A DNA stretch of 64,000 bases from an uncultured Bacillota bacterium (lineage in GTDB: Bacteria > Bacillota_I > Bacilli_A > RFN20 > CAG-826): NCBI GenBank assembly GCA_937876465.1, contig CALEHV010000044.1, positions 9,841 to 73,840 of the forward strand, in the 5' to 3' direction. The notes beneath the pieces are model-generated. The model was not told the DNA's origin, searched no databases, and saw nothing but the letters and a program-made list of their open reading frames with translations. Shown in pieces: positions 34,934 through 61,490 of the stretch; position 1 is the stretch's first letter; every line of letters starts with the position of its first letter. The position numbers were made by a program, and so were the translations under genes.

Positions 34934-35079
34934 AAATTAAATCTATAATAAAAATGCACATAGGAAATAACTAGCAATCGTCCCAAGTTGTTGTTTATTT
35001 CTGCATATCCCTATCATCCACTCAATAAAAATATTAAATGTTGAGTGATTTAGTCATTCAACGAAAGGAATTATTAAAA

Positions 35080-35763
35080 ATGAAAAAATCAAAAATCTTA
35101 GTTCCAGCAATCGCACTTCTCGCATTAGGCGTCGCTGGTTCAACAGTTGGTACAGTTGCTTGGTTCCAAGCTACAGCTGCTTCAACTAGTGTTGCTGCAG
35201 ATACAGCTAATGTTGAAACTATTTCTGGCGTTACAAACACTGACGCATTTGAAGTTACAGCAGTTCTTACTGGTTCACTCGACAATATTTATTTAACAAA
35301 TGATGCTGGCGAAACAAAATTAATCGTTAACAATGAGAATGTTGTTGTTACACCGTCAGAAGGTACTGGTTATAAAACATTAACAGTTAATGCAAAAGTT
35401 GACTATACAGGTTCAGGTTCACCTGTTTCTGCAGATTATGTCTTAAGCGCATGGAAAGAAACAGTTAAGGCTAGTGGCATTAATTTTACAGTTACTGATA
35501 CTTCAACTGGACTCGGAGCAGGTGCAGGCTTAAAATTCTGGACTGCAGCTCCAACATCATCATGGGCAGGTGAAGCTAGTGTTTCCGTAAACTGCACAAA
35601 ACCTGTCGCAACCGCTGTTACATTTACTGGAAGTGGTAATGCTTATTCAGCAGATATCGAATGTAATTTAGCTGTTTATGTTGGTGTCAAAGGCGTTGAT
35701 GATCTTGTGCAAGAATCAACTGATGCATATCAATTAACAGTTACACCAGCATTTGGTGCATAA
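35080..35763 (+). CDS. secreted 227-aa protein with SipW-cognate-type signal peptide; candidate major fibre subunit
   Basis: MKKSKILVPAIALLALGVAGSTVGTVAWFQATA.. (K-rich n-region, hydrophobic core, GTVAWF). The mature part is T/S/A/G/V-rich with only two Cys. It is monocistronic, with its own promoter region and a strong terminator. SD aaagga lies 10 nt upstream of the ATG at 35080; the track start at 35038 lies inside a hairpin loop and lacks an SD. Confidence 0.65.
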   Translation: MKKSKILVPAIALLALGVAGSTVGTVAWFQATAASTSVAADTANVETISGVTNTDAFEVTAVLTGSLDNIYLTNDAGETKLIVNNENVVVTPSEGTGYKTLTVNAKVDYTGSGSPVSADYVLSAWKETVKASGINFTVTDTSTGLGAGAGLKFWTAAPTSSWAGEASVSVNCTKPVATAVTFTGSGNAYSADIECNLAVYVGVKGVDDLVQESTDAYQLTVTPAFGA

Positions 35764-35785: not shown

Positions 35786-35812
35786 GGTCACATTAAAAAT
35801 GTGACCTTTTTT
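35786..35812 (+). terminator. rho-independent terminator after the 35080 gene
   Basis: Stem ggtcacat (35786-93) / atgtgacc (35799-806), loop taaaa, then tttttt. Confidence 0.9.
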
Positions 35813-35881
35813 ATATTCATTTAAAAAATTATTTAATAATGTTAGACTATGTTATCATTAATAAAGAAAAGGGAATTTTAT

Positions 35882-36259
35882 ATGAACAAAACAACGAAAC
35901 GAATCTTAATTTTCACAGGATTAGGCCTTGATATCGCGGCTATGGTTTTCCTTCTTGTAATCGCTATAATTATGCTCGCTACAATGCCACAGATAATTGA
36001 TCCAGCGCATCCTGAATGGGTTATTTCCAAGAATGGTGAATTTATAGGAAACCTTCAATTAAATCCGACTCTTTATTTTTGCACTTGCGTTCTTCCTTTA
36101 ATCCTTCTTTTTATTGCAAATATTGTTGGTGTTATTCTTTATGTTAAGAAACACGCCTCAAAGAAAGCCATTCTTGCAGATCTTAGCGATGCTCAAAAAG
36201 AAGCTCTTAGAGCAGAACTTCTTAAAGAGATGAACAGCAAAGAAGAAGACAAAAAATAA
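35882..36259 (+). CDS. small two-TM membrane protein with charged C-terminal helix, unknown function
   Basis: MNKTTKRILIFTGLGLDIAAMVFLLVIAIIMLA.., a second TM LYFCTCVLPLILLFIANIVGVILYV and the tail LSDAQKEALRAELLKEMNSKEEDKK. SD aaaaggga lies upstream of the ATG at 35882. Confidence 0.6.
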   Translation: MNKTTKRILIFTGLGLDIAAMVFLLVIAIIMLATMPQIIDPAHPEWVISKNGEFIGNLQLNPTLYFCTCVLPLILLFIANIVGVILYVKKHASKKAILADLSDAQKEALRAELLKEMNSKEEDKK

Positions 36260-36340: not shown

Positions 36341-36370
36341 TTGACAGAAAAATATCCTTTTTCATATAAT
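36341..36370 (+). promoter_or_regulatory. sigma-A promoter of the ten-gene operon
   Basis: Consensus TTGACA (36341-46), an 18-nt spacer and consensus TATAAT (36365-70). The predicted TSS is about 36377, immediately 5' of the riboswitch aptamer. Confidence 0.8.
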
Positions 36371-36543: not shown

Positions 36544-37359
36544 ATGGTTGATTTCAAGTTGCTTTACAAACGCAAGGCGAAAAAGATCGTTCCAATAGTT
36601 GGAGGTTGCTGCCTCGGTGTTATTGCAGTCTTTATTGGAGTAGCACTATTGGGCCAACGTTCAGCTCCACTTACAGTATCTTTAAATAACTCTGGTGCAT
36701 CACTTGCATTAAGTAGTTCACAAAAAGAAGGTTCACCTAAGACTTCATTCCTTTTAACTAAAGGTGTTCCTGGATATACAGAAATTGACGGAAGATCTAT
36801 TTCTTCATATGAACAAACTATGGAGATTGATAGTGAATTCTCAGAATCTGTTTTGTCACAGGATAAAAAGTCTACACTATTTTTTAAATACACTTTCTTT
36901 GTTCACAATACTGGAAGTAAGAACGCAACTTATACCTTGAGTTTAAATGTATCAAATCCTAATAGAACAGCAGATAATTTTGATCTTGCCGATATTTTAC
37001 GTGTACGTTTTTATGAGAATGCAGATGAAAATACACACACATATAAGACATACGCAAAAGCAACAACATATTTTGATCCAAATGCTGGAACATATGTTGA
37101 AGGTAAGGAACATATATCTGGTGCTGATACACCTCTTGTTGACGAAAACTTTGTAAGTAATAAAACAATTCTTACAAGTACAACTGAAAACTTTGAACCA
37201 AATGCTGTAAAACGTTATACATTCCTTTTCTGGCTTGAAGGAAACGATCCTGATAGCGATGGAAAAGAAGAACCTATTGGTAGTAGTTTAGCTTTAGGAG
37301 TAGGCGTAGACGCACATGAAGCAGACCAACCAAGCGAAGAAACATCTCAAGAAGAATAG
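36544..37359 (+). CDS. N-terminally membrane-anchored TasA/camelysin-like protein (tentative), acidic C-terminus
   Basis: One N-terminal TM (IVPIVGGCCLGVIAVFIGVALL) without the AWF motif. It has beta-rich stretches (STLFFKYTFFVHNTGSKNATYTLSLNVS) and the C-terminal motif FLFWLEGNDPDSDG..SSLALGVGV, which is related to the (Y/I)(L/I)EGWD motif of the next two proteins. Confidence 0.5.
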   Translation: MVDFKLLYKRKAKKIVPIVGGCCLGVIAVFIGVALLGQRSAPLTVSLNNSGASLALSSSQKEGSPKTSFLLTKGVPGYTEIDGRSISSYEQTMEIDSEFSESVLSQDKKSTLFFKYTFFVHNTGSKNATYTLSLNVSNPNRTADNFDLADILRVRFYENADENTHTYKTYAKATTYFDPNAGTYVEGKEHISGADTPLVDENFVSNKTILTSTTENFEPNAVKRYTFLFWLEGNDPDSDGKEEPIGSSLALGVGVDAHEADQPSEETSQEE

Positions 37360-38377: not shown

Positions 38378-39411
38378 GAAAAAGAACTGTTATTGGAATT
38401 GGTACATGTTTAATTGCGATTGCGTTATCTGCAAGCGTACTTTCAACAGTCGCGTGGTATAACGGTTCATCACACTTACAAATCGAGAACTTTAACATTG
38501 GTTTTTCGTCTAAGGAACTTAAAATTTCTACAGATAACGTAGATTTCAAGGATCGCTTAGGTAAAAACGATTTAAACCAAGTTGATAAGTTCATACCTGT
38601 AAGCAGCATGTTTTCATCATTCTGGTTAAATTCTAAACAGGAACAACCTGTATTTAGAAAAGGCTTTGATGAAGAAGAAGTTAGAAAAACTACTTATACA
38701 TCTATTGATGATTACGCAGTTGCTGAAAGTGGATTCTTGTCACAGGTTCTATATTTGAAAAGTGATACAGATGCATCTGCAACTCTAGACATAGAAAAAA
38801 CCTATGTCCGCCCTAACGAAGATGCAAATAATGATATTGCTAATAAATTAGCAAGTAAATATCCTGAAATGTCTCATGAACAGATTGTTAATAATTTAAA
38901 CAAGATTTCTGATTCATTACGTATGTCAATTCTTGTACTTGATGAGGAACAAGAACATGAATTAGACGATTATGCTTATTACATTATCGATCCACATAAA
39001 AATGGAGACACCCTCTATGGTGGACTTTTAGATAATGATTTAGACGGATATTACGATAATTACGATGGAAAAGAAGTGCTCTTTGGTGAAGCGAATAATG
39101 TTAGTGAGTCTACACTTGTGTACACTGATGAAAAAGCTCACCACGAAGGCAAATCTTATTCTATATTTGAAGCATCAACAAAAGATAATGTAAAACATTT
39201 AGACTTAGGAAAATCTGTTGATGCTGGTTTGCAAATTGCAAAAGAAAATTCTCTCAGTTTAGTTGAGTCTCAAGACATTCGAATCTCCCTTAAGACTAAT
39301 GTATCTAAACGAATTGTCTTCTCCCTTTACTTAGAAGGTTGGGATTTAGACAATACAAATTTATCAATGTATGCGCATTTTTATATGAGCCTTGTGTTCA
39401 AACTTGCGTAA
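38374..39411 (+). CDS. secreted protein with SipW-cognate-type signal peptide, paralogue B
   Basis: ..IAIALSASVLSTVAWYNGS.., LDNDLDGYYDNYDGK and C-terminal YLEGWDLDN..FYMSLVFK; ATGA overlap with the upstream ORF. Confidence 0.6.
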   Translation: MRKRTVIGIGTCLIAIALSASVLSTVAWYNGSSHLQIENFNIGFSSKELKISTDNVDFKDRLGKNDLNQVDKFIPVSSMFSSFWLNSKQEQPVFRKGFDEEEVRKTTYTSIDDYAVAESGFLSQVLYLKSDTDASATLDIEKTYVRPNEDANNDIANKLASKYPEMSHEQIVNNLNKISDSLRMSILVLDEEQEHELDDYAYYIIDPHKNGDTLYGGLLDNDLDGYYDNYDGKEVLFGEANNVSESTLVYTDEKAHHEGKSYSIFEASTKDNVKHLDLGKSVDAGLQIAKENSLSLVESQDIRISLKTNVSKRIVFSLYLEGWDLDNTNLSMYAHFYMSLVFKLA

Positions 39412-39434: not shown

Positions 39435-40970
39435 ATGGAAGACTATTTCGCATATTTAGGAAAAATGATTGTCCAATTTTTCCAAGATGTTGGACAGTGG
39501 TTTTGTGATTGGGTAGCTTTTAAATATTCAAGACTACCTGGTAATTTCGCCCGTTATGGTGATTATTTTGGTTCATATAGCGGCGGATTTGGCGTTGGAG
39601 GATGGATTATGTTCGTCGTCTTCGCCATTGTATTTGTTGGACTTATAGGAGCGATTTGTTATGGATTGTTCTTGTTGATTCGCAAATATGTTCGTTTCGT
39701 TAAAGGTGAACTCGATAAAGACGCTTTAAAGCTTCAAGTTGAAAGACTTAATTACGAACTCTATCAAATCATGCAAGAAAGAGATCGTATCTTGGATTTA
39801 AAAGTCAAAGCTCTTGGTATTAATACCAAAAAGCCAGCTGGAGAAGAAGGCGAGAAATCTGAAGAAGAAGAAACAGTTGAAGAAATTGCTTCCCGTTTCC
39901 CAAAGCTTACTCATGTTGACCACGAGTATGCTGGTAAGAACATGGAGATTCCAGAAGTTGAAGGCTTAACATTGAGACAATTATGTGAAAATTTTAGAAA
40001 CTTTGCTGCCTCTCAACTTGGTTTGTACTACACAATTACAACTATCCGTCAATTATTTGCCGGTATGGGCGCAGGTAAATTAGTTATTCTCGAAGGTATT
40101 TCTGGTACTGGTAAAACTTCCATGCCATATGCCTTAGGTAAATTCTTTGCTCACGATGCAGAAATCTGTTCAGTTCAACCAAACTGGAAAGATAGATCAG
40201 AACTTCTTGGTTATTACAACGAATTTACTAAGAAATTCAACGAATCTGAATTCTTACGTGCTTTATATACATGTAACTACAGAAGAGACTTTAACCTTAT
40301 CGTTCTCGATGAAATGAACTTGGCTCGTGTTGAATACTACTTTGCTGAATTCCTTTCTGTTTTGGAAATGCCTAACCCAAATGAATGGAACGTTGAAATG
40401 ATTGGTAGCCACGATCCAAACGATCCTAAGTTATTTAAAAACGGTAAACTCAAAATTCCTCAAAACGTTGTCTTCTTCGGAACAGCTAACAACGATGACT
40501 CTACATTTACTATTTCCGATAAAGTTTACGACCGTGCTATTTGTTTGTTCTTTGATAACAAAGGTATTGCTTTTGAAGCACCATACCAAGCACCAATGGT
40601 TATTCCGTTCTCACAAGTCCAAAAACTTTATGATGAAGCAGACGCTAAGTACCAAGTTGATGAAAAGACACTTGCTAAGTTTGCAACTCTTGATGACTTT
40701 GTTATTAAGAAATTCAGACTCGCATTTGGTAACCGTATTTTAAAACAATTGAAAAAATTCGTTCCATGCTTTGTTGCTTGTGGTGGAACAGAATTAGATG
40801 GAATTGACTTCATCTTTACAAATAAAATTCTTAAGAAATTCGAATCTTTAAACATTGGCTTCCTTAAAAACGAACTTAAAGAACTTGACGCAATGCTCAA
40901 TAAATTATTCGGATCAGGAACATTCCCAATGGCTCACAAATTCATCGAAAACATGCTTAGAATGAACTAA
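39435..40970 (+). CDS. membrane-tethered McrB-family (AAA_5-type) AAA+ NTPase
   Basis: An N-terminal TM helix (GGWIMFVVFAIVFVGLIGAICYGLFLLI) and a coiled-coil (LKLQVERLNYELYQIMQERDRILDLK). Walker A is GISGTGKTS (40095-40118) and Walker B IVLDEMNLARVEYYFAEFLSVLE (from 40299). FFGTANNDDSTFTISDKVYDRA is the McrB-clade pattern DEMNLA..VEYYF..GT(A/V)N.D(D/E)(S/T). Strong SD aggagg. Confidence 0.7.
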   Translation: MEDYFAYLGKMIVQFFQDVGQWFCDWVAFKYSRLPGNFARYGDYFGSYSGGFGVGGWIMFVVFAIVFVGLIGAICYGLFLLIRKYVRFVKGELDKDALKLQVERLNYELYQIMQERDRILDLKVKALGINTKKPAGEEGEKSEEEETVEEIASRFPKLTHVDHEYAGKNMEIPEVEGLTLRQLCENFRNFAASQLGLYYTITTIRQLFAGMGAGKLVILEGISGTGKTSMPYALGKFFAHDAEICSVQPNWKDRSELLGYYNEFTKKFNESEFLRALYTCNYRRDFNLIVLDEMNLARVEYYFAEFLSVLEMPNPNEWNVEMIGSHDPNDPKLFKNGKLKIPQNVVFFGTANNDDSTFTISDKVYDRAICLFFDNKGIAFEAPYQAPMVIPFSQVQKLYDEADAKYQVDEKTLAKFATLDDFVIKKFRLAFGNRILKQLKKFVPCFVACGGTELDGIDFIFTNKILKKFESLNIGFLKNELKELDAMLNKLFGSGTFPMAHKFIENMLRMN

Positions 40971-40974
40971 TTTT

Positions 40975-42843
40975 ATGGCTAAGAAATTATCTACTTATCA
41001 AAAATTGCAACGTAGTTACGTAAAGAAAACTAGTTCTTTGTATTCTAAAAACGAAGGCAAAGAAGTTTTCGATATGCTCTCCAAGGGTGAAAACAAATAT
41101 TTAAAACTAAATAGAATGGAAACATCTTCAATGGATATGACATGGATCAAACGTATTGAAGATTGTTTGGGTTCTATTGGAGAAATTGTTCAAAACCCAA
41201 AGAAGACCATTCAAACGTTAACAGAAGTTGTTCAAGTTGAAAAAGTTAAGAAAATTGGAATTGAAACAGTCCAACACCTTTCAAGCCATACTCAATTCAT
41301 TAAGACAGTTGATGAAAACGGAAATGTTACTCCGTCAAAATTATTAAACGTTTTCAATGATGACTACTATGCCATCTACGAAAACAAATTTATTGCTACA
41401 TTATTAAGACATTTAATTGTGTTCGTTGAAAAACGTTACGAATTCGTTATGCAACAAGCAAAAATGACTGATGTCTCTTTGCTTTGGGCTAAGAATCGTA
41501 CTCAAGTAGGCGATGCAGTTATTGAAATTGAAACAAAGGTTCGTTATTCTCAACCAGCTGAACAAGCAGCTGCTGATAAACTCAAAGGTTACATTAAGCA
41601 AATTAAAGATATTAGAAAATATCTCAAATTCTATATGCGAAGTGAATTTATGAATATCTTGAGAAGAGAAAAAGATGTTCGTAATCCAATTTTGCAAACT
41701 AACATTATTCGTAAAAACCCAAAATATCATAAATGTTATTTATTATGGTTATTCATCGAACGTTATAGAGAAGCAGGAATTGAAGCAAAGGTAGAAGAAA
41801 ACTATGCTGATTTAACTAAACAAGAAATTGAAGAATTAAATCAAGTTATGTGTTCTAACTTCTTAGCTTTAAAAGGAAAAGACTTTAAAAAATCTAACAA
41901 GAAACAAAAAGTTTATAAGCCAAAAATCCTTAATACCTATGATGATGTTATCTATAAACCTGCTTATTATGATGGACCGATAGAGTACATTCGTGTGGAT
42001 GATAAATATAGAGAATATAGTGAATCCTTACACGATCTTCCACTTCATCCAACTCGTAAAGTAGCTGAATACGAAGAAGAAAAATACCAAGAGAATAAAG
42101 CCACTAGAGAAAAGACAAAACAAATTGATAGCTTGTTAAAACGTAAAGAAGCTGAAAAAGCAAATTACGAAAAACAAGAAGCTTTAGCTGAGATTAGAGA
42201 AAAAGAAAAAGACGAATACATCAAGGCTAGAGCAGAAAAAGAAATACGTGAAGAAGCAATCGAAAAAGTTGATAAAGCACGTAAAGAATTAATTAAGAAG
42301 GCTAAGAAAACTTCTACAAAGAAAGCCAAACCTGTGGTTAAAAAGGAAGAGCCTAAGAAAGAAGAGGTAAAACCAGAAGTTAAGGTTGAAGAACCTAAAC
42401 CAAAAGTTGAACCTAAGAAAGAAGTTAAGGCAGAACAACCAAAACCAAAGAAGGCTAAACCAAAAGCCGCTCCTAAGAAAGTTAGTAAACCTAAAAAACA
42501 AGTAGAGGAGAAGAAGAGAGAACCAAAACCAGAGGTAAAACCTGAGGTCAAGGTTGAAAAACCAAAGGCAGAGCCAAAGAAGGCTAAACCAAAAGCTGCT
42601 CCTAAGAAAGCAGTCAAGAAGGAAGAGCCTAAAAAAGAAGTTAAGAAGGCTGAACCTAAGAAAGAAGTTAAGGTTGAAAAACCAAAACCAGCTCCTAAGA
42701 AAGTTGTTAAACCAAAAGAACAACCTAAGGAGAAAAAAGTTGAACCTAAAGTACAAGCAAAACCTGTTGTTAAACAAGAAGAACCAAAACAGGTTAAGAA
42801 ACCTTTTGTATTAATTGGAAATTATAGAAACAAGGTGAAATAG
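40975..42843 (+). CDS. McrC/DUF2357-like N-terminal domain protein lacking a recognisable nuclease, with coiled-coil and lysine/proline-rich (histone-H1-like) tail
   Basis: 622 aa with no signal peptide. The N-terminal ~330 aa contain ..VEKVKKIGIETVQHLSSHTQFI..YAIYENKFIATLLRHLIVFVEKRY.., resembling the DUF2357 partner of McrB-like ATPases. Then comes an E/K coiled coil and about 160 aa of KPK/KKE/PKKA repeats. No PD-(D/E)xK motif was found by eye. Confidence 0.45.
   Translation: MAKKLSTYQKLQRSYVKKTSSLYSKNEGKEVFDMLSKGENKYLKLNRMETSSMDMTWIKRIEDCLGSIGEIVQNPKKTIQTLTEVVQVEKVKKIGIETVQHLSSHTQFIKTVDENGNVTPSKLLNVFNDDYYAIYENKFIATLLRHLIVFVEKRYEFVMQQAKMTDVSLLWAKNRTQVGDAVIEIETKVRYSQPAEQAAADKLKGYIKQIKDIRKYLKFYMRSEFMNILRREKDVRNPILQTNIIRKNPKYHKCYLLWLFIERYREAGIEAKVEENYADLTKQEIEELNQVMCSNFLALKGKDFKKSNKKQKVYKPKILNTYDDVIYKPAYYDGPIEYIRVDDKYREYSESLHDLPLHPTRKVAEYEEEKYQENKATREKTKQIDSLLKRKEAEKANYEKQEALAEIREKEKDEYIKARAEKEIREEAIEKVDKARKELIKKAKKTSTKKAKPVVKKEEPKKEEVKPEVKVEEPKPKVEPKKEVKAEQPKPKKAKPKAAPKKVSKPKKQVEEKKREPKPEVKPEVKVEKPKAEPKKAKPKAAPKKAVKKEEPKKEVKKAEPKKEVKVEKPKPAPKKVVKPKEQPKEKKVEPKVQAKPVVKQEEPKQVKKPFVLIGNYRNKVK
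42330..42800 (+). repeat. degenerate in-frame tandem repeats encoding the K/P/E/A/V-rich tail
   Basis: aaggctaaaccaaaagc(c/t)gctcctaagaaag occurs at 42451 and 42580 (129-nt period). The EVKVE(E/K)PKP-coding unit recurs near 42374, 42541 and 42662. Confidence 0.8.
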
Positions 42844-42846
42844 TTG

Positions 42847-43680
42847 ATGGCAAAAAAGCAAAAGAAACCAAAAAGCAAACAACGAAAAATACTTGAGTGG
42901 GTTGCCACTGGTGTCTTTTTAGCTTTAATAGGCACAGTTGCTGGTTTTAGAATTTATCAAGCAGCATCTGGCGATCATGCTATTTTTGGAACTCAGTTTC
43001 CAGTCGTTTTAACAGATTCTATGGAAACCGACTATATGGTCGGCGATGTATTGAAGGTTAAAGCAGTTTCTCCTCAAGAAGTAAAAGAAGCTTTTGATAA
43101 AGGCGAAACTATTGATATTTCATTCAAATGGAATATTGGAACAGCTTCAAAACCAAATATTCAAATGATGACCCATAGAATCATCGATGTAATGTACTTT
43201 GTAAATACAGAAGACAACTACTCTTCTAATTACAAATACAATGCAAATACTTATTCATTTAATAACGATCAATACCATTACACCTTTGTTACTCACGGAA
43301 TCAACAAACATTCTAGCCAAACAAAAGAAGGCGAAGATTTAACAAATCAACTTCAATTTTCAAATGAATCACAATTCGTTGGAAGAGTTACTGGAAAGTC
43401 ACAATTCCTAAGAGTAGCAAACCAAATATTTACATCTGTTTGGACCCTTATCCTTTTAATACTAATTCCTGGATTATATATAGTGATCACCTCTGTTATC
43501 GATTTATTTAAAGCATTTGACGATGACGAGGATACAGAGAAACTTGTTTTAGAAGGCGGTGGAACTACACCCCCTCTAGAAGAGAAGAAGGAAGATCCTT
43601 TAAAAGGGTTAAGCGAAGAAGATAAAGAAAGACTTAAAAAAGAAATGCTTGAAGAACTTTTAAAGAGAGGAAAGAAATAA
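42847..43680 (+). CDS. sipW: archaeal/ER-type signal peptidase I (SipW-like) with C-terminal TM and charged tail
   Basis: An N-terminal TM, the catalytic Ser box VVLTDSMETDYMVGDVLKV (Ser codon 43018-20), the His box MMTHRIIDV, a later FVTHGINK..FVGRV region and a C-terminal TM (VWTLILLILIPGLYIVITSVI). It follows directly after the upstream stop (tag ttg ATG). Confidence 0.7.
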   Translation: MAKKQKKPKSKQRKILEWVATGVFLALIGTVAGFRIYQAASGDHAIFGTQFPVVLTDSMETDYMVGDVLKVKAVSPQEVKEAFDKGETIDISFKWNIGTASKPNIQMMTHRIIDVMYFVNTEDNYSSNYKYNANTYSFNNDQYHYTFVTHGINKHSSQTKEGEDLTNQLQFSNESQFVGRVTGKSQFLRVANQIFTSVWTLILLILIPGLYIVITSVIDLFKAFDDDEDTEKLVLEGGGTTPPLEEKKEDPLKGLSEEDKERLKKEMLEELLKRGKK

Positions 43681-49026: not shown

Positions 49027-49040
49027 CCCAAAAATGAATA

Positions 49041-49073
49041 AAGATGTGTAAAATTACACATCTTTTTCTTTTG
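49041..49073 (+). terminator. rho-independent terminator ending the ten-gene operon
   Basis: Stem aagatgtgta (49041-50) / tacacatctt (49055-64), loop aaat, then tttctttt. Confidence 0.85.
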
Positions 49074-49354: not shown

Positions 49355-52300
49355 ATGAATCGTCTTCAAAAAAAGATTATTACAATTGCGTTAGCGTTAG
49401 GTAACATTGTTTTATCGTGCGTCGTTGCTGCTACTGCTACATACGCTTGGTTTAAAGCTAGTAATGCTACAATTACAACTCAATCCGCTTCTACAACAAT
49501 CAAATCTGAAGCTGGTGGTTCAACACTTCAATGGGAAATCTTAAAGTTTGATGATAACGAGAAGAAAGGAATTTCATATAGAGAAAACGATGAGTTCTTC
49601 CTTCAACCTTACGATCAATACTTAACTGCTAAAAATAAACATACAAACGTTATTCTTTGGGCCGATGTAATGGTTTCCAATTTTACTAGTGCAAATCAAT
49701 TGTATGTTGATATTGAGTGTTCTCCAGATCATGACCCTGTTTATTCAAGTACAGCCACACCTGAAGAAAAGGTTCCAAGCTATACCTCAAATATATGTCA
49801 ATTCAAATCGACAGTTTACTCATATACTGATGCAGATGATAACGAAGTTGTAGTTAATGATGTCTTAGATAACACAAACGCTGCTACTCGTTATGAAACC
49901 ACAACAAACTTCTTTGCCGGAATTAAAACTCCAGGGACACGATTTGTTGCATTACATAACAGCACTCCAAACAAAGATCATTCAATTACCCTTTGTCCAA
50001 ATTTTGATATTGGTGCATCAACTGCCAAGAAAATTACAATTGCAGTTGAATGTTCATATAACGAAAAATTAGTTGCTCACTATGCTAATGGTCGTTTAGG
50101 CACGATTAATTTAGCAGGCGACATTACAAGTTTTAATTTTCGCACAGGCGCATCATACAGTGGTGCATACGTCAAAGTCACAAATCAATCACAGTTAGAT
50201 ACATCAGGCCGTTATATGATTACTTATGACGGAACAGAGTATGCTGGTGATGATATGAAAGCTGCTTTTAATGGTAGCGGAACATCTTCAGAGGATTTCA
50301 CTGGAAAATTAAACTATCGAGATGTCTTTGCTCGTAAAGGTAGAATTACCGAGACCGAAGTTACTCATGCACAATCCTGGGATTACAACATCGCAGACAG
50401 TAAGTTAACATCCAATTCCGGATATGTAGTTGGTGCTACAGGTTCAGGAATGGGCGCTTCAAAATCCGGTTCTTATACAAACACACTTACTTACAATTCT
50501 GGATTAGTAGATACAGGATCTAATTCAAAATATTTAAATCACAATGCTACTGCTGGTGGCACCAAATATAACTATTACGATTCAGCTTCTGGAACAAAGA
50601 GAAAATCTCCAGAATTTTATCGTTATGATGCAAGCGCATTTGGTGACATGATTTTGTCCGGAATTCAATTAGGCGGTTCAATTAATCACCAATTAGAAAA
50701 GGGCCAACCATTTAGTTATGGTGGTACAGTTACTGCTGTTTATAACGAAGGCACAGCTTCTGAATTTACAGAGAATATTCCTGTTAACGATCCAAACTTA
50801 TCCTTTACTGGATACGATATGAATAATGACGGTAACTATCTTGTTACTGTTTCCTATACAGATGTAGAAGACAATATTACTGTTACAGCAAATTACAACT
50901 TAGAGGTTTATACTCCTGAAGCTACTTTAGTTAGCTTATCAATTGCTGGTCAACAAACCCAATTCGTTGAAGGAGATACATTTACTTTAGGCGATAATGC
51001 TGTTATTACTGCTCATTATAGTGATGGTACAAATCCTGTAATTCAAAACAACGATTCACGTTTGACTATTAATGGTCCTACACAACAGCAAATGGATACC
51101 GAAGGAACATATGAAGTTAATATCTCATTTAATGATGGTACAACAACTAAATCTATTGAACCTTATGATATTGAAGTTGTTGCTCAGACAGCAGCTGTAT
51201 ATCAAAGAATAACTTCTACTTCAGATTTAACAAATGGAACTTATCTTTTTGTCCATGAAAATAATAGTGTCGCATTAAATGGTGGACTTTCAACAATTGA
51301 TGTTGTGTCTAATACAATTTCTGTTTCAATTAGTAATTATCAAATTGAGGCAACAGCGGAAGTTGATGCTGCTGCTTTTACATATAATTCAACAACAAAG
51401 TATTTTATGAACGCTAATAATAAATATCTTTCAAACAGTAGCGATATTGATTTAGTTGATACTGGAGTTGCTCATAATGTTTCTTTTGATTCGGATAACG
51501 CAATTATTAAAATTGGAACAGAAAGTAGCTCACCTAGATTACGTTTTAACAATAATGATGGTCAAAAACGTTTTAGATATTATACAAATGACAACATGGA
51601 CGCAATCCAACTTTATAAAAAAGTAAATGTATCACCATTAACTTCCATCACTTTAAGTAACACAACAAACACATATTATACAGGTGATACTTTTGTTAAT
51701 CCTACAATCACTGCTCATTATAAAAATGGAACTCAAAACAACATTGATCCTTCTCAATGTAGTATTGTTGACCAAGCAACAGGCTCAAGCCCTGATTTAA
51801 CAACAGCTGGAGTAAAGACTATTGAAGTTTCATATACTGAAAATGGTGTTACAAAATCAGATACTTATGACATTACAGTTACACAGACATTGCCAATTTC
51901 TTTAACTAACCTCAGTGGTTATAAGACACAGTTCTATACAGGTGATACTTTTGTTATTGATTCTTCAGGAAATTCTTTCTCTGCTTTAGTTACTTATAAT
52001 AGTCCGGCTACAAAAACAGTCCATTCATCTGATGTCTCTCATTCAACTCCAGACATGAGTACAGCTGGACAAAAAACAATTACAATTTCCTATACAGAAA
52101 ACGGAACAACAGTTAGTGCTACATATAATATTACAGTTACTCAAAAAGCAATATCTTCAATTGCAGTAACTACAATGCCTAGTAAAACAACATATACTCA
52201 AGGTGAATCTCTAAGTACATCTGGTATCACTGTTACTGCAACATATAATAATGGCAGTCAAGAAAACGTTACATCTGGTTGTACATACAGCCCAACAACT

Positions 52301-53701
52301 TTAAATACTGTTGGCACACAAGCCATTACAGTTACACATACAGCATCTGGTAAGACAACTACATTCAATGTTACTGTCAAAGCTCCTGTAGTTTTAACTG
52401 GTATTGAATGTAGTGGATATACTGAAGAATATACTGTTGGAGATACATATCAATTTGATGCGACTGTAACAGCCAGCTATTCAGATGGTTCTTCACATAC
52501 AGTTACTCCAACCAGTGTTAATCCATCCACAATTGATACTTCGACAGATGGAGATCATACTATCACAGTCTCTTATACCGAAGGCAGTGTTACAAAAACT
52601 GATTCGTACACAGTTTCGGTTGTTGCAGGATCATCTACAACTTCTGTAACATTCGATTTCAAAAATAATAGTTACAGTTTAGCTACATCTCAAAGTGGAA
52701 GTAAAACTGCTGAAACTGGTGCTGCCAATATGACTATTAATAATTATGCATATAACACTTCAAACAAAGAAGTTCGATTGTATAAGTCAAATAGTAATTA
52801 TGGTGGAACCTCTAAAATGGTTTTCACAATTGATGAATCAAAGGTTATTAAATCAATTGTTATAACTGGAGCGGGTGCAGCCAACTTATCTCTTGGAGCT
52901 GGTGGCGGATCTTACAGCAATGGAACATGGACCGGTTCATCAACAAGTGTCACAATTCAAAACAACACTTCTTCAACGCAAGCCATTTATACAATTACAA
53001 TTACATACGAAAGTGGATCCACTCCTACCCCTGCAAGTATTTCTGTTAGCCCAACTACATTAAGCATGACTGTTGGCGGATCAGATCAAACTATTACTGC
53101 AACTACTTCAGGTGGCTCCGGAGGAAGTATTGAATGGTCTTCAACCAATACTTCTGTTGCAACAGTTGCAGGTGGAACCGTTCATGCTGTTGCTGCTGGT
53201 TCAGCGACAATTAAAGCCAATTATGAAGGCGCTGAAGCAACTTGCGAGGTTACAGTAACAGGAAGTTCTAGTGGAACAACAGTAAGTATTTCTTCATTTA
53301 GTTCTATATCAGGCAATATTGGTAGTGGTTCTATTGTTAGTTATTCGGCGTATAAAGGCGGAGGAACAAGTGGTCCAGCTGTAAATGATGGAGCAATTAG
53401 ACTATATCAAAATAGTAGTGGAAGTACCGGAGGATATGTTGTTATCGGAGTTTCGTCTGGACATAAAATTAAATCAGTAACCATTAAGTCTACAATGGGA
53501 ACAACAACTGGATATTATTTAGGAAATCCAGGAAGTACAACACCAAGTAAGAGTTCGTTTGAAGTAAGCAACTATAGTTTATCTGCAAATGCAGAATATA
53601 CTGTAAGCGACCTTGATACACAGTATATTACCTTTGCCTGTTTTGGTACATCAAGTAGCACACGATTGTACTTGTCATATATTTCTGTAACTTATTTATA
53701 A
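49355..53701 (+). CDS. giant (1448 aa) secreted multidomain adhesin-like protein with SipW-cognate-type signal peptide
   Basis: ..VVAATATYAWFKASNA... It carries six Ig-like repeats, one Big_2-type domain (ISVSPTTLSMTVGG..VHAVAAGSATIKA..CEVTV, about 53038-53262) and two copies each of two unassigned modules. No LPXTG or other wall-anchor motif is present. Confidence 0.75.
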   Translation: MNRLQKKIITIALALGNIVLSCVVAATATYAWFKASNATITTQSASTTIKSEAGGSTLQWEILKFDDNEKKGISYRENDEFFLQPYDQYLTAKNKHTNVILWADVMVSNFTSANQLYVDIECSPDHDPVYSSTATPEEKVPSYTSNICQFKSTVYSYTDADDNEVVVNDVLDNTNAATRYETTTNFFAGIKTPGTRFVALHNSTPNKDHSITLCPNFDIGASTAKKITIAVECSYNEKLVAHYANGRLGTINLAGDITSFNFRTGASYSGAYVKVTNQSQLDTSGRYMITYDGTEYAGDDMKAAFNGSGTSSEDFTGKLNYRDVFARKGRITETEVTHAQSWDYNIADSKLTSNSGYVVGATGSGMGASKSGSYTNTLTYNSGLVDTGSNSKYLNHNATAGGTKYNYYDSASGTKRKSPEFYRYDASAFGDMILSGIQLGGSINHQLEKGQPFSYGGTVTAVYNEGTASEFTENIPVNDPNLSFTGYDMNNDGNYLVTVSYTDVEDNITVTANYNLEVYTPEATLVSLSIAGQQTQFVEGDTFTLGDNAVITAHYSDGTNPVIQNNDSRLTINGPTQQQMDTEGTYEVNISFNDGTTTKSIEPYDIEVVAQTAAVYQRITSTSDLTNGTYLFVHENNSVALNGGLSTIDVVSNTISVSISNYQIEATAEVDAAAFTYNSTTKYFMNANNKYLSNSSDIDLVDTGVAHNVSFDSDNAIIKIGTESSSPRLRFNNNDGQKRFRYYTNDNMDAIQLYKKVNVSPLTSITLSNTTNTYYTGDTFVNPTITAHYKNGTQNNIDPSQCSIVDQATGSSPDLTTAGVKTIEVSYTENGVTKSDTYDITVTQTLPISLTNLSGYKTQFYTGDTFVIDSSGNSFSALVTYNSPATKTVHSSDVSHSTPDMSTAGQKTITISYTENGTTVSATYNITVTQKAISSIAVTTMPSKTTYTQGESLSTSGITVTATYNNGSQENVTSGCTYSPTTLNTVGTQAITVTHTASGKTTTFNVTVKAPVVLTGIECSGYTEEYTVGDTYQFDATVTASYSDGSSHTVTPTSVNPSTIDTSTDGDHTITVSYTEGSVTKTDSYTVSVVAGSSTTSVTFDFKNNSYSLATSQSGSKTAETGAANMTINNYAYNTSNKEVRLYKSNSNYGGTSKMVFTIDESKVIKSIVITGAGAANLSLGAGGGSYSNGTWTGSSTSVTIQNNTSSTQAIYTITITYESGSTPTPASISVSPTTLSMTVGGSDQTITATTSGGSGGSIEWSSTNTSVATVAGGTVHAVAAGSATIKANYEGAEATCEVTVTGSSSGTTVSISSFSSISGNIGSGSIVSYSAYKGGGTSGPAVNDGAIRLYQNSSGSTGGYVVIGVSSGHKIKSVTIKSTMGTTTGYYLGNPGSTTPSKSSFEVSNYSLSANAEYTVSDLDTQYITFACFGTSSSTRLYLSYISVTYL
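50650..51186 (+). repeat. two Ig-like (Big_3-like) protein repeats, ~85-90 aa each
   Basis: Pattern ..G(D/Q).F....V(T/I)A.Y..GT........(L/F)...G.D.....G.Y.V.(V/I)S(Y/F)......(T/S).......(V/I)(E/V)V. Confidence 0.6.
51626..52625 (+). repeat. four tandem Ig-like (Big_3-like) protein repeats, ~80-85 aa each
   Basis: A recurrent motif, e.g. YTGDTF...ITAHYKNGT...PDLTTAGVKTIEVSYTENGVTKSDTYDITVTQ, PDMSTAGQKTITISYTENGTTVSATYNITVTQ, LNTVGTQAITVTHTASGKTTTFNVTV and IDTSTDGDHTITVSYTEGSVTKTDSYTVSV. Confidence 0.7.
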
Positions 53702-53716
53702 AATGAAAGGAGAGAC

Positions 53717-56700
53717 ATGCTTAGATTATTAAAAAAGAACAAATTAATTATAGCACTATCATTATTCTTAATGAGTGGCGTAACAGCAGTAGTAGTTTCT
53801 ACTATTGCATGGTTTAAGGATGTCAGCATGTTTTCTCCATCAAATGCTTCTAGCTCTGTTATCACTAATTACTTTGACTCAGGAAAAGGAACACAAGCTG
53901 ATCCTCTCGTTATAACAAGACCAATACATTATTACAATCTCGTTTATCTACAAGAAACAAATCCTACTATTGAAGCAATTAGCGCTCAACCATTTGCTGA
54001 TTCAGTACTTTATTTCCAATTTGGTAAAAAAGATATTGACGGCAATGGTGGAACAGGCGATGAGAATATTTACAAATTCTATAACTATGGAGACGATGGA
54101 ACATTGCAATATAACGCTCAAGGCGATGAAACATATTCTCCAATTCTAAATATGAATTACTATAGTGGAACACGCGCTTTACCTCCATTAGGTTCAAGCA
54201 CACATCCATTTAAAGGACATATTGTTGGAAACAACTTAACTGTTTCAAAATTACACATTAATGGTGAAGGGTATTCAGATATTGGTATTTTTGGTTATGT
54301 AGCTCAAGGCGCTACTGTTTCAAATTTATATTTTGAAGCACCTTATATTGATGCCGGCAAAAATGATTGTACTAAGACCGGATCAAGTGGACACGATCCA
54401 CATCCAACCCACACATATATTGGGTATTTGGCTGGTCACGTTTACCAAGCTAACTCATCGTTCTCTAACGTTTACGTTAATAACTGTGAATTAGAAAATA
54501 CAACAGGCAATCAAAGTGAAATGATTAATACTTATGGTTATTTCGGCCACGTTGATTTGCCATCTGATATTCAAACAGAATCAGCAAGCTATTCTGCGGA
54601 AGCAAAAGCAAGCGATATCTATAACGCTGTAAACGGCTCTTATTCTGATGCAAGTAGTCAATCGGTTGTTTCAAGAAATACTTCTTACACTCCTAGCGGA
54701 ACATATGGTTCAGCGGTTACTAATTCCGGTGGCACTTATAATATGGGAAGTTATTCAGCCAACAATCCATATTCTTTATCAACCATCGGATATACTGGCG
54801 GCGAATCAGTTAACATGAATATCCGTTATAAGATTTCCGAAGGAAATCTAAACCCATTAGACATTAATACTACTCAATTAGATTCAAAACCAACCGAAGA
54901 AGAGTGGAAACAAAAAGATGATGGATCATATGTTTATTGGGATTCAGCAAATAGTAAATGGACTTATGCAAAAGTTGAATCGCATTCTTCTGGAGAAGAA
55001 GTAACGGTAGATTACAATTGCTTTACAATTTCATATACTTATAATTCAAAGAATTACTTCTTGAGATACGATAATGGTAATTTAGGATGCGCTCAAATCG
55101 ATTTGAATGCAAGCGGTGACCCAGTAACAACTTTAGGTGACGATTATTATTTCGTCTTTAAGAAAACCGAAGGCTCTAAAGGTATTGAAGAATTTACTTC
55201 AAATTCAAATAGTGCCTCCGTATACATTTACTCTCCTGCATATCAAAAGTATCTGTATATACAAGAAGTGTCTTCTAGTAATGAATATACTCCTCAATTT
55301 ATTGATACAGCAGAATTGAAGTTTAATATTTCCGGACAACCAACAACAGAAATTTCAACAGTTTTAGGTTCCTACACCGATGCTCTCCATGGTGAAAGCC
55401 ATGTTTGGAGTAATAGAAAAACATCTACAAATCCAGGCACAACATTTACAATTGGAAAACCTGGCACTAGATCAAGTGTTGTTGGTTCAGAATATAATCT
55501 TATTACTAGTTCAACTGGTGTTCACGCTGGTGATGTTGTTGTTATTGCAACAGGATTTGATGTTGGTAAGAGCCATTCGTATAGTGGCTATTATGTAATG
55601 ACTGGTCAAAACACAAATAACCGTTCAGCCGAATTAACTACTGTAGTTAATAATAAATTAACACCGATACCAGGAGCTGCCGAATTCCTTATTGGAGACG
55701 GTTCCAGTGTTGTAGAAGATTCCTATACTTTCTTTGATCAATCTTCTACTTATAAAGAAGATAATAGTGGTTATCTTTATGCTTCTAGTAGTAACAGCAA
55801 CTATATGAACACCAACAAATTAAGTACTGCTGGAGATAACGCCTATGCAACCATTAATATTGACGCAAACGGATATGCTGAAATACGTTTCCAAGGTCCA
55901 AGTACGCGTGACTATATGTATTTTAACTCAAACACTCAGGGCACATATCCAAATTATTCTCAATTTAGTCCTTTATTCTCATGTTATGGATATAAATCTG
56001 TGGGTAGTAGTTTAACTGCTATTGGATATGATGATTCGCATAACCAATTCCATTATCCTAAATTATTTAAAAAGACAGAAATTCACGGTAGTGATGAAGA
56101 TTATTCAACTTGTGTTGTTAGAAGATACACTTCATACGCCCCTATTGAACAGACCGTAACACCATACGATATGTTTACCGCCCCATTATCTGCAGATGCT
56201 GATAATCCAGCAAGTTATTCGTCTACCCCATTTAACGTTAATCCTGATAAAGATGTCACGTTTATATTCGCTTCTTCAAGAGTTTCTTTTACTGGTTCTA
56301 GCGAAACATATTGGGCAAAAGTTACTAACCAATCAGAGATTACTTCAGGCGATAAATATTTAATTGTTAGTGAAGACGATGGAGTTGCGTTTGATGGCTC
56401 TTTAACAGCGCTTGATGCGGGTAAAAACAAGATTTCGGTTACAATTTCAGATTCTAAGATTACTGAAAATGCCACCGCTTTAATTGCAAGTTCGTTTACA
56501 ATTTCAACAGTAACTGGAGGATATTCAATCCAATCTTCCAGCGGATATTATATTGGCTCCTCATCTACTGGTAATCAACTTAAAACAAGTACATCATATA
56601 GTGCTAGTACCTATCTGAATACAATTTCTATTGACACAAATTCTAATGCAACAATTAAGGCAGGTGGAACAGAAAATCAAACATTGGCTTATAACTCTGT

Positions 56701-57637
56701 ATCAGGGGATACAAACGAACGTTTTAGATATTATAAAACAGCAGGAGGTACCAGCAATAACCATTACCCTCAATTATTTAAATTGATTGAAGCTCAAGGT
56801 AGCACAGAAACATATATTGGTGACTTAGTCGGCAATAGATATAATCCAAATCGTATTGATGTTGTAGGTCCAGTTTCTTTCAGTTCGAATTCTTATAGCT
56901 TTACAGGAACCAGTTCAGTTACAAGTTCACCAAGTGGAAAATATTACACTACGTCATTTATTAAGAGTGGTATTTCTATCCTTGTAGATAAAAACGGATC
57001 AAGAGATCTTGGACATTTAATTGTTGATTATAGCGGTTCTTCAGAACCATACTTATTTAGCACTTCAGGAAGTTCTACAACATTATCTACTGCAGGTGCT
57101 AGAGATACAGACGGAAATGCAGGCGATAACGTCCACAGTTACTTATTGAACTTTAACAATACAAATATTTTGACGCTTGCATATTGCGGAATTGATTCAA
57201 GTGGCAATATTGTATCGTTAAATAGTGGTTCATTAGAAAAATATGTATTAGTCGTTGGTGCTGCAACTAGTGTTGCATTTAGTAACGTACAATATAACTT
57301 CCTTAAACCTCAGGGCAATGTCGGAAACTTTGGAAGTGTCGATTATAGAACAGCTCAATATGATAGCAACGGAGTTATAACTCAAGCATCGCTAAATGAG
57401 CAAGTTGCTAACTCTAATATCTCGATTTTCTATGATATAACAAATGAGAACCATGTATTCTCGATGACTGTTTTATACGACTCATCTACTCAAACATATA
57501 ATTTAACAGTAGAAACCAATATGGATATTGTTATAACCGTCTTCCTCTACGATAACACTTCAAAGGTTATTGTTAACGGAGATACATCACATACATATAT
57601 GGCATCCTCAAATGTAATTCCTATCATAGTGAATTAG
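53717..57637 (+). CDS. giant (1306 aa) secreted adhesin-like protein with SipW-cognate-type signal peptide and GLUG-like beta-helix region
   Basis: ..GVTAVVVSTIAWFKDVS... There is a GLUG-like stretch (HPFKGHIVGNNLTVSKLHING..IGIFGYVAQGATVSNLYFE..YIGYLAGHV..FSNVYVNNCEL, about 54190-54500) and two copies of the module shared with the preceding protein. No LPXTG. SD aaaggag lies 15 nt after the upstream stop. Confidence 0.7.
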   Translation: MLRLLKKNKLIIALSLFLMSGVTAVVVSTIAWFKDVSMFSPSNASSSVITNYFDSGKGTQADPLVITRPIHYYNLVYLQETNPTIEAISAQPFADSVLYFQFGKKDIDGNGGTGDENIYKFYNYGDDGTLQYNAQGDETYSPILNMNYYSGTRALPPLGSSTHPFKGHIVGNNLTVSKLHINGEGYSDIGIFGYVAQGATVSNLYFEAPYIDAGKNDCTKTGSSGHDPHPTHTYIGYLAGHVYQANSSFSNVYVNNCELENTTGNQSEMINTYGYFGHVDLPSDIQTESASYSAEAKASDIYNAVNGSYSDASSQSVVSRNTSYTPSGTYGSAVTNSGGTYNMGSYSANNPYSLSTIGYTGGESVNMNIRYKISEGNLNPLDINTTQLDSKPTEEEWKQKDDGSYVYWDSANSKWTYAKVESHSSGEEVTVDYNCFTISYTYNSKNYFLRYDNGNLGCAQIDLNASGDPVTTLGDDYYFVFKKTEGSKGIEEFTSNSNSASVYIYSPAYQKYLYIQEVSSSNEYTPQFIDTAELKFNISGQPTTEISTVLGSYTDALHGESHVWSNRKTSTNPGTTFTIGKPGTRSSVVGSEYNLITSSTGVHAGDVVVIATGFDVGKSHSYSGYYVMTGQNTNNRSAELTTVVNNKLTPIPGAAEFLIGDGSSVVEDSYTFFDQSSTYKEDNSGYLYASSSNSNYMNTNKLSTAGDNAYATINIDANGYAEIRFQGPSTRDYMYFNSNTQGTYPNYSQFSPLFSCYGYKSVGSSLTAIGYDDSHNQFHYPKLFKKTEIHGSDEDYSTCVVRRYTSYAPIEQTVTPYDMFTAPLSADADNPASYSSTPFNVNPDKDVTFIFASSRVSFTGSSETYWAKVTNQSEITSGDKYLIVSEDDGVAFDGSLTALDAGKNKISVTISDSKITENATALIASSFTISTVTGGYSIQSSSGYYIGSSSTGNQLKTSTSYSASTYLNTISIDTNSNATIKAGGTENQTLAYNSVSGDTNERFRYYKTAGGTSNNHYPQLFKLIEAQGSTETYIGDLVGNRYNPNRIDVVGPVSFSSNSYSFTGTSSVTSSPSGKYYTTSFIKSGISILVDKNGSRDLGHLIVDYSGSSEPYLFSTSGSSTTLSTAGARDTDGNAGDNVHSYLLNFNNTNILTLAYCGIDSSGNIVSLNSGSLEKYVLVVGAATSVAFSNVQYNFLKPQGNVGNFGSVDYRTAQYDSNGVITQASLNEQVANSNISIFYDITNENHVFSMTVLYDSSTQTYNLTVETNMDIVITVFLYDNTSKVIVNGDTSHTYMASSNVIPIIVN

Positions 57638-61444: not shown

Positions 61445-61490
61445 ATCACTAAAGTAAAGTGTTATATTTAAAAAAACTAAGGATTTAATT

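Follow-up and report, generated by a model that had tools for sequence, protein, structure and literature searches.

A 64-kbp stretch of DNA from an uncultured Bacillota bacterium (hereafter the window; contig CALEHV010000044.1, positions 9,841 to 73,840) carries, at positions 39435-40970, an open reading frame (ORF) for a McrB-like AAA+ GTPase with an N-terminal transmembrane (TM) helix, followed directly by a gene for a McrC-like partner. The best overall explanation, to which we assign a probability of about 0.55, is that the two genes form a CoCoPALM GTPase/partner pair serving a surface fibre that depends on a SipW-like signal peptidase. CoCoPALM, an NxD GTPase fused to an FtsB-like transmembrane/coiled-coil domain, was named in two sentences by Bell et al. 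(2024, eLife, PMC11090510), who had already linked it to pilus assembly and deferred its analysis to a later paper. The concept itself is therefore known, and the window gene joins a named kind, of which it is very probably a member. No follow-up on CoCoPALM was found in the literature, and searches on SipW with McrB, on PDC-M26, and on TasA-like fibres with a GTPase returned nothing relevant beyond Bell et al. Across other genomes, the GTPase/partner pair is an invariant, co-diverging part of the core of a locus that also contains SipW, a single-TM protein (p271), and secreted proteins with a T-x-A-W-F signal.

The first-pass annotation of the window had placed the protein in the McrB clade on the basis of its Walker A motif, its Walker B motif, and a downstream motif ending in KVYDRA. 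All three were present in the 511-amino acid (aa) ORF: the Walker B stretch reads IVLDEMNLARVEYYFAEFLSVLE (residues 289-311) and the sensor region reads FFGTANNDDSTF..KVYDRA (residues 347-368). When the GTPase was searched with phmmer against all PDB sequences, E. coli McrB was the only AAA+ match (E = 0.0084). A profile of the GTPase family was aligned by hhalign to E. coli McrB with a probability of 95.3% (E = 2.3e-8), covering residues 191-461 of the GTPase and 176-429 of McrB, that is, the whole GTPase and lid region. The sensor pattern N-x-D-[D/E/Q/A]-S was observed across 93 representative relatives, and N-N-D-D of the window protein aligned with NTAD of E. coli McrB. Bell et al. (2024, PMC11090510) define one major McrB branch by an NxD motif, most often with E or another D after it. 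The Pfam AAA_5 model scored below its threshold (18.4 bits vs. 22), and a PHROGs search matched nothing. Combined with the DUF2357 domain of the partner, the sequence comparisons support the earlier assignment and place the protein in the NxD branch of the McrB clade. Sequence matches specific to McrB, together with the NxD motif and a partner carrying DUF2357, ruled out a MoxR or secretion-ATPase identity.

Residue conservation was scored on an alignment of 37 homologues with 62-92% identity. Residues G221-S229, D292, E293, N352, N353, D354, D355, and R367 were invariant in 37/37 homologues; within Walker B, V290 and L291 were also invariant, and I289 and M294 were kept at 90% or more. Because every catalytic residue was invariant, the GTPase is under selection as an active NTPase. 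The gene is tightly packed between its neighbors. The stop codon of the upstream gene is at 39411 and the ATG of the GTPase at 39435, leaving a 23-nucleotide (nt) gap that holds an AAGGAG...GGAGG ribosome-binding site; the GTPase stop is at 40970 and the partner ATG at 40975, leaving 4 nt. Both gaps were exactly as first annotated.

The GTPase consists of an aromatic-rich N-terminal segment of 55 aa, a TM helix, a juxtamembrane helix, an acidic linker, and the GTPase and lid domain (about residues 190-511). Of the N-terminal elements described earlier for about 150 aa, the aromatic-rich segment, the single strong TM helix, and the acidic linker were all recovered, and the coiled coil was recovered only in part. 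Aromatic residues (F, W, and Y) made up 16 of the first 55 positions, compared with 15% over the whole protein. Hydropathy analysis found one strong TM helix, residues 56-82, which was the sole segment with a Kyte-Doolittle value above 1.6 and was kept in 37/37 aligned homologues. It is directly followed by the basic stretch RKYVRFVK, so that by the positive-inside rule the C-terminal part of the GTPase is predicted to be cytoplasmic. The AlphaFold2 model showed one continuous helix from residue 53 to 126, with a predicted local distance difference test (pLDDT) score of 54-81 (mean 76); disorder (pLDDT < 50) started at 121-140 and continued into the acidic linker. In the juxtamembrane helix, Y85, F88, E92, K95, L98, L105, E108, E115, I119, and L120 were invariant. 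Its heptad register was partial, and a crude heptad scan did not exceed shuffled sequences (145 of 200 shuffles scored as high); the coiled-coil label therefore relies on the long predicted helix and its strong conservation and not on a coiled-coil statistic.

No match was found in the N-terminus to a DNA or modified-base reader domain, and the membrane anchor and helix stand in its place. The module was kept in 120/120 of the best database homologues (61-91% identity, about 505 aa) and in full-length homologues at loci of at least 598 GTDB species, which argues that it is no chance feature. When eight N-terminal fragments were examined by hmmscan, none had a significant Pfam match to FtsB or DivIC; the best match to the anchor was FtsL_2 (E = 0.05) in one of the eight. 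Since the FtsB homology was not reproduced, the FtsB-like feature of Bell et al. is seen here in architecture only.

The partner, of 622 aa, comprises a DUF2357 domain (about residues 59-220), a conserved middle region, a long helix (368-449), and a low-complexity tail (441-622). After the tail was trimmed, Pfam DUF2357 (PF09823, the McrC N-terminal domain) matched with E = 2.5e-7 and 30.6 bits (gathering score 23.3), and it also matched 12 of 32 partner homologues; the full-length protein with its tail gave no Pfam match. The first-pass annotation had noted the absence of a nuclease in this protein, and none was detected by Pfam, NCBIfam, PADLOC, or fold search. A profile of the partner alignment searched against the PDB retrieved only low-complexity proteins, through the Lys-rich tail. 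Within the DUF2357 region, the AlphaFold2 model contained a long beta-hairpin (residues 165-194) on which K173 was invariant. The hairpin also carries a D166...E186-T-K188 pattern (window positions 41470-41541), with D in 28, E in 32, and K in 27 of the 32 homologues; this pattern may belong to the McrC 'finger' that enters or contacts the McrB ring.

The 180-aa tail of the partner is PEVK-like, with 37% Lys, 16% Pro, 15% Glu, 14% Val, and a net charge of +41. Among homologues, the tail ranged from short or absent to well over 1000 aa at some loci. Homologue tails usually ended in a short conserved basic motif (..FRSKKK or AKILxVKNSRTGKKFGRR), and some ended in a small 'IVKTNDGYYV...GGKVVKL' domain. 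In the window, a 27-nt tandem repeat lies within the tail at 42601-42678, and two antisense ORFs, 42165-42617(-) and 42289-42777(-), are artefacts of the tail repeat.

The neighbors of GTPase homologues were surveyed at 83 loci, 3 from metagenomes and 80 from GTDB (GTPase identity 42-83%), the latter drawn from Erysipelotrichaceae, other Bacilli metagenome-assembled genomes, Acholeplasmataceae, Anaeroplasmataceae, Izemoplasmatales, Oscillospiraceae, Ruminococcus, Christensenellaceae, and Lachnospiraceae. The partner was directly downstream of the GTPase in 80 of the 83. Thirty-five loci, which span Erysipelotrichaceae, Acholeplasmatales, Izemoplasmatales, and Clostridia, were well flanked, with at least 5 kb on both sides of the GTPase; all 35 contained a SipW-like peptidase, often in two copies flanking the pair, and all 35 contained p271. 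An adjacent partner was present in 33/35, T-x-A-W-F-signal proteins in 33/35, and EAL proteins in 26/35. Such a survey had been suggested earlier as a means of telling SipW-type from restriction contexts, and it returned the former. A family of small proteins, tm136, was detected at 68 loci by iterated hidden Markov model searches, and in 13 of the 35 well-flanked loci at E < 1e-10, mostly in the Bacilli subset. When the normalized similarity of each GTPase to the window copy was compared with the corresponding values for its neighbors, rho was 0.73-0.81 for the partner, SipW, subunit, and EAL genes and 0.45 for p271, and this correlation indicates that the locus diverged as a unit.

A reciprocal search was seeded with p271 from the Clostridial subset and yielded 80 loci, mostly from one human-gut Ruminococcus-like species; as the sample is low in diversity, it gives weak support only. 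The GTPase was found at E < 1e-10 in 71 of the 80, and in 3 more the GTPase start lay at the contig end. Five of the remaining contigs end too near p271, which leaves one exception, L129 (9935-12687). In this locus, the genes after p271 encode an ArsR-like regulator and a transporter, and the roughly 2 kb of downstream sequence holds neither SipW nor the GTPase; the contig may be a chimeric assembly or may represent a deletion variant. As to the number of SipW copies, two paralogues usually bracket the pair in Clostridia and in Acholeplasma/Izemoplasma-like genomes (L032, L046, L051, L055, L062, L066, and L078), and the window and its close relatives retain only the downstream copy.

The window locus shares with CoCoPALM an NxD McrB-like GTPase, a TM segment and long helix replacing the DNA reader, a DUF2357 McrC homologue with a long helix, signal-peptidase-family genes, and a Bacillota host, and no feature of the locus contradicts membership. 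CoCoPALM has coiled coils on both proteins; the AlphaFold2 models of the window pair predict long helices at 53-126 of the GTPase and 368-449 of the partner. Three points are added to the description of CoCoPALM here: the peptidase is SipW-like, often in two copies; p271 and T-x-A-W-F proteins are always present and EAL proteins often; and the partner ends in a hypervariable Lys/Pro/Glu tail. Compared to E. coli McrBC (PDB 6hz4 and related entries), the window pair has a homologous GTPase domain, the Walker A and B motifs, the N..D signature, and a partner of the McrC N-domain family encoded directly downstream. It differs in that the GTPase is membrane-anchored without a DNA-binding N-terminal domain, the signature is NxD and not NxxD, the partner has no detectable PD-(D/E)xK nuclease, and the context is a surface-fibre operon and not a restriction-modification or defence island.

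The locus also resembles B. subtilis tapA-sipW-tasA and C. perfringens sipW-bsa in combining a SipW-type peptidase with secreted proteins that have one signal motif. The TasA motif is G-T-W-A-A-F, and that of the window proteins is T-x-A-W-F. To our knowledge, neither of these systems has an NTPase, whereas the McrB/McrC-like pair and p271 are universal at loci of the window type. Any likeness to type IV pilus and Tad systems (PilB/TadA, PilC platform, and PilD peptidase) is purely a functional analogy, in which the counterparts would be a hexameric NTPase in the cytoplasm, a signal peptidase of the system's own, and subunits that are inserted in the membrane and have an N-terminal motif in common. 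PilB is a RecA-like secretion ATPase; the ATPase superfamily of those systems is unrelated to the window GTPase, and their peptidase and subunit signal are different.

The GTPase family was searched exhaustively against 1.8 billion representatives, which yielded 8314 relatives; 725 had E <= 1e-30. Among the best 150, 24 had one TM helix, 17 had two, 43 had three or more, and 56 were soluble, with a length of about 755 aa that includes an N-terminal extension of about 450 aa. Anchoring in the membrane thus recurs in this GTPase branch, and it is the one-TM clade that is linked to SipW loci. One soluble relative (L088) adjoins genes for a VWA protein, a Ser/Thr kinase, a PP2C phosphatase, a UPF1-like helicase, and McrB-like and McrC-like proteins; others belong to plasmid-borne AAA + DUF2357 pairs matching PADLOC PDC-M26A. 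Judged by gene content, the soluble relatives sit in CoCoNuT-like contexts. The multi-TM relatives were more varied in their surroundings: a 5-TM relative (L090) is accompanied by a SipW-like gene and two 'TGF[SA]AWV' proteins, with a pair of C5 DNA methyltransferases adjoining; another (L095) lies in an exopolysaccharide cluster (GT4, Bac_transf, and GH114); a third (L092) has two tandem GTPase/partner pairs beside a giant leucine-rich repeat protein; and a fourth (L094) has an LDcluster4 gene in its neighborhood.

Among soluble proteins, the GTPase domain is most closely related to those of CoCoNuT systems, represented by the PADLOC candidate system PDC-M26. PDC-M26A matched the GTPase with E = 4.5e-39 in core residues 195-312 only (profile positions 313-431 of 724), and the GTPase was 34-36% identical to the plasmid-borne AAA proteins. 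The partner had no PADLOC match, so that PDC-M26 was not matched by both components. The two kinds share a long helical N-terminal extension and McrC homologues with a lost or inactive nuclease. CoCoNuT GTPases, however, are soluble, about 750 aa long, and include some 450 aa of coiled coil, while the window GTPase is membrane-anchored, and CoCoNuT neighbors are helicases, HEPN or other nucleases, kinases, and VWA genes, none of which was found at the window locus.

This relationship raises the alternative that the locus is a pilus-linked conflict or defence system, in which the pair keeps an immune function like that of its CoCoNuT relatives. It might detect infection by fibre-dependent phages from its place at the membrane and then set off an abortive response or stop fibre export, with an effector encoded elsewhere in the locus or provided by the partner itself. 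The PDC-M26A match, the company kept by the soluble relatives (helicase, kinase, PP2C, VWA, and plasmids), the multi-TM relative beside two C5-methyltransferases, and the conserved D...ExK pattern on the partner hairpin are all in keeping with it, as is a PNP_UDP_1-like gene in the operon; PNP-family effectors occur in some defence systems. We nevertheless consider a defence role unlikely. No nuclease, HEPN, or other recognized effector domain was detected in the partner or in conserved neighbors, and the partner itself went unmatched by PADLOC. The locus has been kept as a co-diverging unit across Bacillota classes, unlike patchy defence islands, and in the window it is flanked by housekeeping genes (M29 aminopeptidase, Y-family polymerase, glycosyltransferases, PTS EIIC, and FBP aldolase). 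In addition, when the McrC of a CoCoNuT has no nuclease, one is always encoded next to it (Bell et al., 2024, PMC11090510), which is not so for the window pair.

Returning to a role in fibre formation, the first-pass annotation had preferred a co-opted motor over a defence module, and the context of the locus strongly favors that choice. As for what the motor does, we infer that the GTPase most likely works in the cytoplasm as a GTP-driven motor that assembles or gates SipW-processed fibres, a role to which we give even odds. McrB forms a hexameric ring into which McrC inserts to stimulate GTP hydrolysis (Bell et al., 2024, PMC11090510). By the same arrangement, six GTPase subunits would assemble into a McrB-like ring at the cytoplasmic side of the membrane, anchored through their six TM helices and a helical stalk, and the partner would dock into the ring and stimulate GTP hydrolysis as McrC does. 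Conformational work would travel through the stalk and TM helices to SipW and p271, and the motion of the ring would drive or gate the release of SipW-processed subunits from the membrane and their incorporation into the surface fibre. The ring would be analogous in function to the cytoplasmic ATPase of type IV pili, but derived from a restriction-enzyme motor.

In a broader and more tentative proposal, CoCoPALM may represent a distinct GTP-powered fibre route in Bacillota, in which a McrB hexamer and a nuclease-less McrC act as a membrane-anchored mechanotransducer. It would stand apart from sortase-dependent assembly, from type IV/Tad systems, and from the self-assembly of TasA; SipW, p271, and the pair would together extrude T-x-A-W-F-signal subunits and giant adhesins, with the hypervariable Lys/Pro/Glu tail of the partner serving as a tether or ruler, and the route would occur widely among uncultured Erysipelotrichales, Acholeplasmatales, Izemoplasmatales, and Clostridia of the gut and rumen. 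If true, it would show clearly that a defence motor (McrBC) was exapted for housekeeping work in the envelope, define an energy-dependent way of assembling fibres in many abundant uncultured gut and rumen Bacillota, including wall-less lineages, and imply that McrB-type rings can act on targets other than nucleic acids. The parts list for a first experimental test comprises the GTPase, the DUF2357 partner, one or two SipW copies, p271, the T-x-A-W-F subunits, and often EAL proteins.

Several points weigh against a fibre-serving pair or against parts of it. The TasA fibres of B. subtilis are not known to involve an NTPase in their assembly, and the need for a motor is therefore not obvious. For a TasA/camelysin fold of the subunits, no Pfam, NCBIfam, or PDB sequence match was obtained, and the common T-x-A-W-[FY] signal motif is the only link to TasA. 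Multi-TM relatives of the GTPase were found in other envelope contexts, and the nearest relatives outside the clade are predicted defence systems. When the full-length GTPase model was compared with the PDB by Foldseek, it matched generic clade-7 AAA+ proteins (MCM, RavA, dynein, BrxL, and NorQ) and McrB was outside the top 50 matches, a lack of specificity that is probably due to the long N-terminal helix. The partner model matched nothing in the PDB below E = 0.4 with Foldseek, and hhalign gave no match between the partner and E. coli McrC. The D166...E186-T-K188 pattern of the partner could also be the relic of a PD-(D/E)xK nuclease site. Residues 1-55 of the GTPase could lie outside the cell or could form a second, weakly hydrophobic TM segment. 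Finally, there is no experimental work on any CoCoPALM system.

The EAL genes suggest another alternative, that the pair is a regulatory or quality-control checkpoint, possibly tied to cyclic di-GMP (c-di-GMP) through the co-operonic EAL proteins. It could control SipW activity, pull subunits that are uncleaved or wrongly inserted out of the membrane, or set the place of the fibre machinery, perhaps at the septum. The EAL genes are co-operonic in the window and present at the 26 well-flanked loci given above, the very variable Lys-rich tail of the partner with its short conserved basic C-terminus resembles a tether or adaptor, and TasA-type fibres elsewhere are not known to need a motor. An FtsB-like homology of the anchor, which would suit such a role, has been reported (Bell et al., 2024, PMC11090510); as described, hmmscan did not reproduce an FtsB or DivIC homology. 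No regulatory domain was detectable in the GTPase or the partner. The EAL genes are missing from about a quarter of the loci while the pair, SipW, and p271 are universal, which ties the function of the pair to the structural core and not to c-di-GMP, and a checkpoint role is accordingly judged improbable. The chance landing of a mobile McrBC-type defence cassette in a fibre operon, raised as the other possibility in the first-pass annotation and consistent only with the domain ancestry from a restriction-enzyme family, is extremely improbable and effectively excluded by the synteny survey: insertion point and gene order are shared by loci of 43-83% identity from Erysipelotrichaceae, Acholeplasmataceae, Izemoplasmatales, Oscillospiraceae, Ruminococcus, and others, the locus genes co-diverge between housekeeping flanks, the short gaps and the partner stop abutting the SipW start suggest translational coupling, and no mobile-element genes are nearby.

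The features of the pair and of the surrounding fibre locus are listed in the table. From p271 to the 1021-aa EAL gene, consecutive genes overlap or are at most 23 nt apart, and the string is bounded by a consensus promoter and a strong terminator-like hairpin. Transcription of the unit with the GTPase probably begins at this promoter. The positions of the two hairpins and the promoter suggest a highly expressed, monocistronic gene for the major subunit followed by one long assembly operon. The T-x-A-W-[FY] motif occurred within the first 70 residues of exactly five ORFs in the window, all five of them in the fibre locus; NCBIfam models of SipW-cognate signals had no match in the N-terminal fragments. 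The SipW-like protein matched NF046067 with E = 1.6e-10 and 40.9 bits (below the cut-off of 190) and TIGR02228 with E = 5.5e-5 (below the curated cut-off), and SM and HR motifs were visible in its sequence.

Table. Features of the GTPase/partner pair and the fibre locus (window positions)
Feature	Position	Strand	Details
Putative major fibre subunit	35038..35763	+	SipW-type signal GTVAWF
Terminator-like hairpin	35786-35806		9-bp stem, 3' of putative major subunit gene
tm136	35849..36259	+	Small 2-TM protein
Sigma-70-type promoter match	36341..36370	+	TTGACA-18-TATAAT, perfect 12/12; upstream of p271
p271	36544..37359	+	Single-TM protein, beta-rich ectodomain; motif RYT..WLEGNDP
T-x-A-W-[FY] signal protein	37316-38377	+	Putative minor subunit
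T-x-A-W-[FY] signal protein	38374-39411	+	Putative minor subunit
McrB-like (NxD-clade) AAA+ GTPase, CoCoPALM type	39435..40970	+	511 aa; hhalign vs. E. coli McrB
Single strong TM helix, WIMFVVFAIVFVGLIGAICYGLFLLI	39600..39680	+	Residues 56-82; Kyte-Doolittle maximum 2.81
Juxtamembrane helix, putative coiled-coil stalk	39681..39812	+	Residues 83-126; AlphaFold2, conservation
Variable acidic disordered linker, including GEEGEKSEEEETVEE	39813..39884	+	Low pLDDT, indels in alignment
Walker A, GISGTGKTS	40095..40121	+	Residues 221-229; invariant
Walker B, IVLDEM	40299..40316	+	Residues 289-294, with D292 and E293
McrB signature/sensor-1, N352-N-D-D355 (NxD, then D)	40488..40499	+	Motif pattern, alignment with McrB
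McrC-like partner	40975..42843	+	622 aa; Pfam DUF2357, AlphaFold2 model, tail composition
Partner tail, Lys/Pro/Glu/Val-rich	42295-42843	+	Residues ~441-622
SipW-like (archaeal-type) signal peptidase I	42844..43680	+	C-terminal TM helix and acidic tail; abuts partner stop
EAL phosphodiesterase	43680-45218	+	
PNP_UDP_1-like protein	45215-45955	+	
EAL protein	45961-49026	+	1021 aa
Terminator-like hairpin	49040-49065		11-bp stem, 3' of last EAL gene
Two giant T-x-A-W-F-signal proteins, putative fibre-associated adhesins	49355..57637	+	1448 aa (Big_2/Big_3 domains) and 1306 aa

The p271 family had no Pfam or PDB match. Its RYT..WLEGNDP motif echoes an 'EGWD' found near the C-termini of the T-x-A-W-F subunits, and p271 may be a membrane-anchored base or platform subunit. 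The PNP_UDP_1 or MTA-SAH-nucleosidase-like gene, a sub-threshold match, is wedged between two EAL phosphodiesterase genes with start/stop overlap; it was seen in 21 surveyed loci, mostly of the Bacilli subset, and might act in nucleotide signalling. Genes for family-2 glycosyltransferases are located at a distance on either side of the locus (31596-32978 and 60467-61552), and the upstream one (460 aa, Glyco_tranf_2_3) may encode a polysaccharide synthase co-regulated with the c-di-GMP genes.

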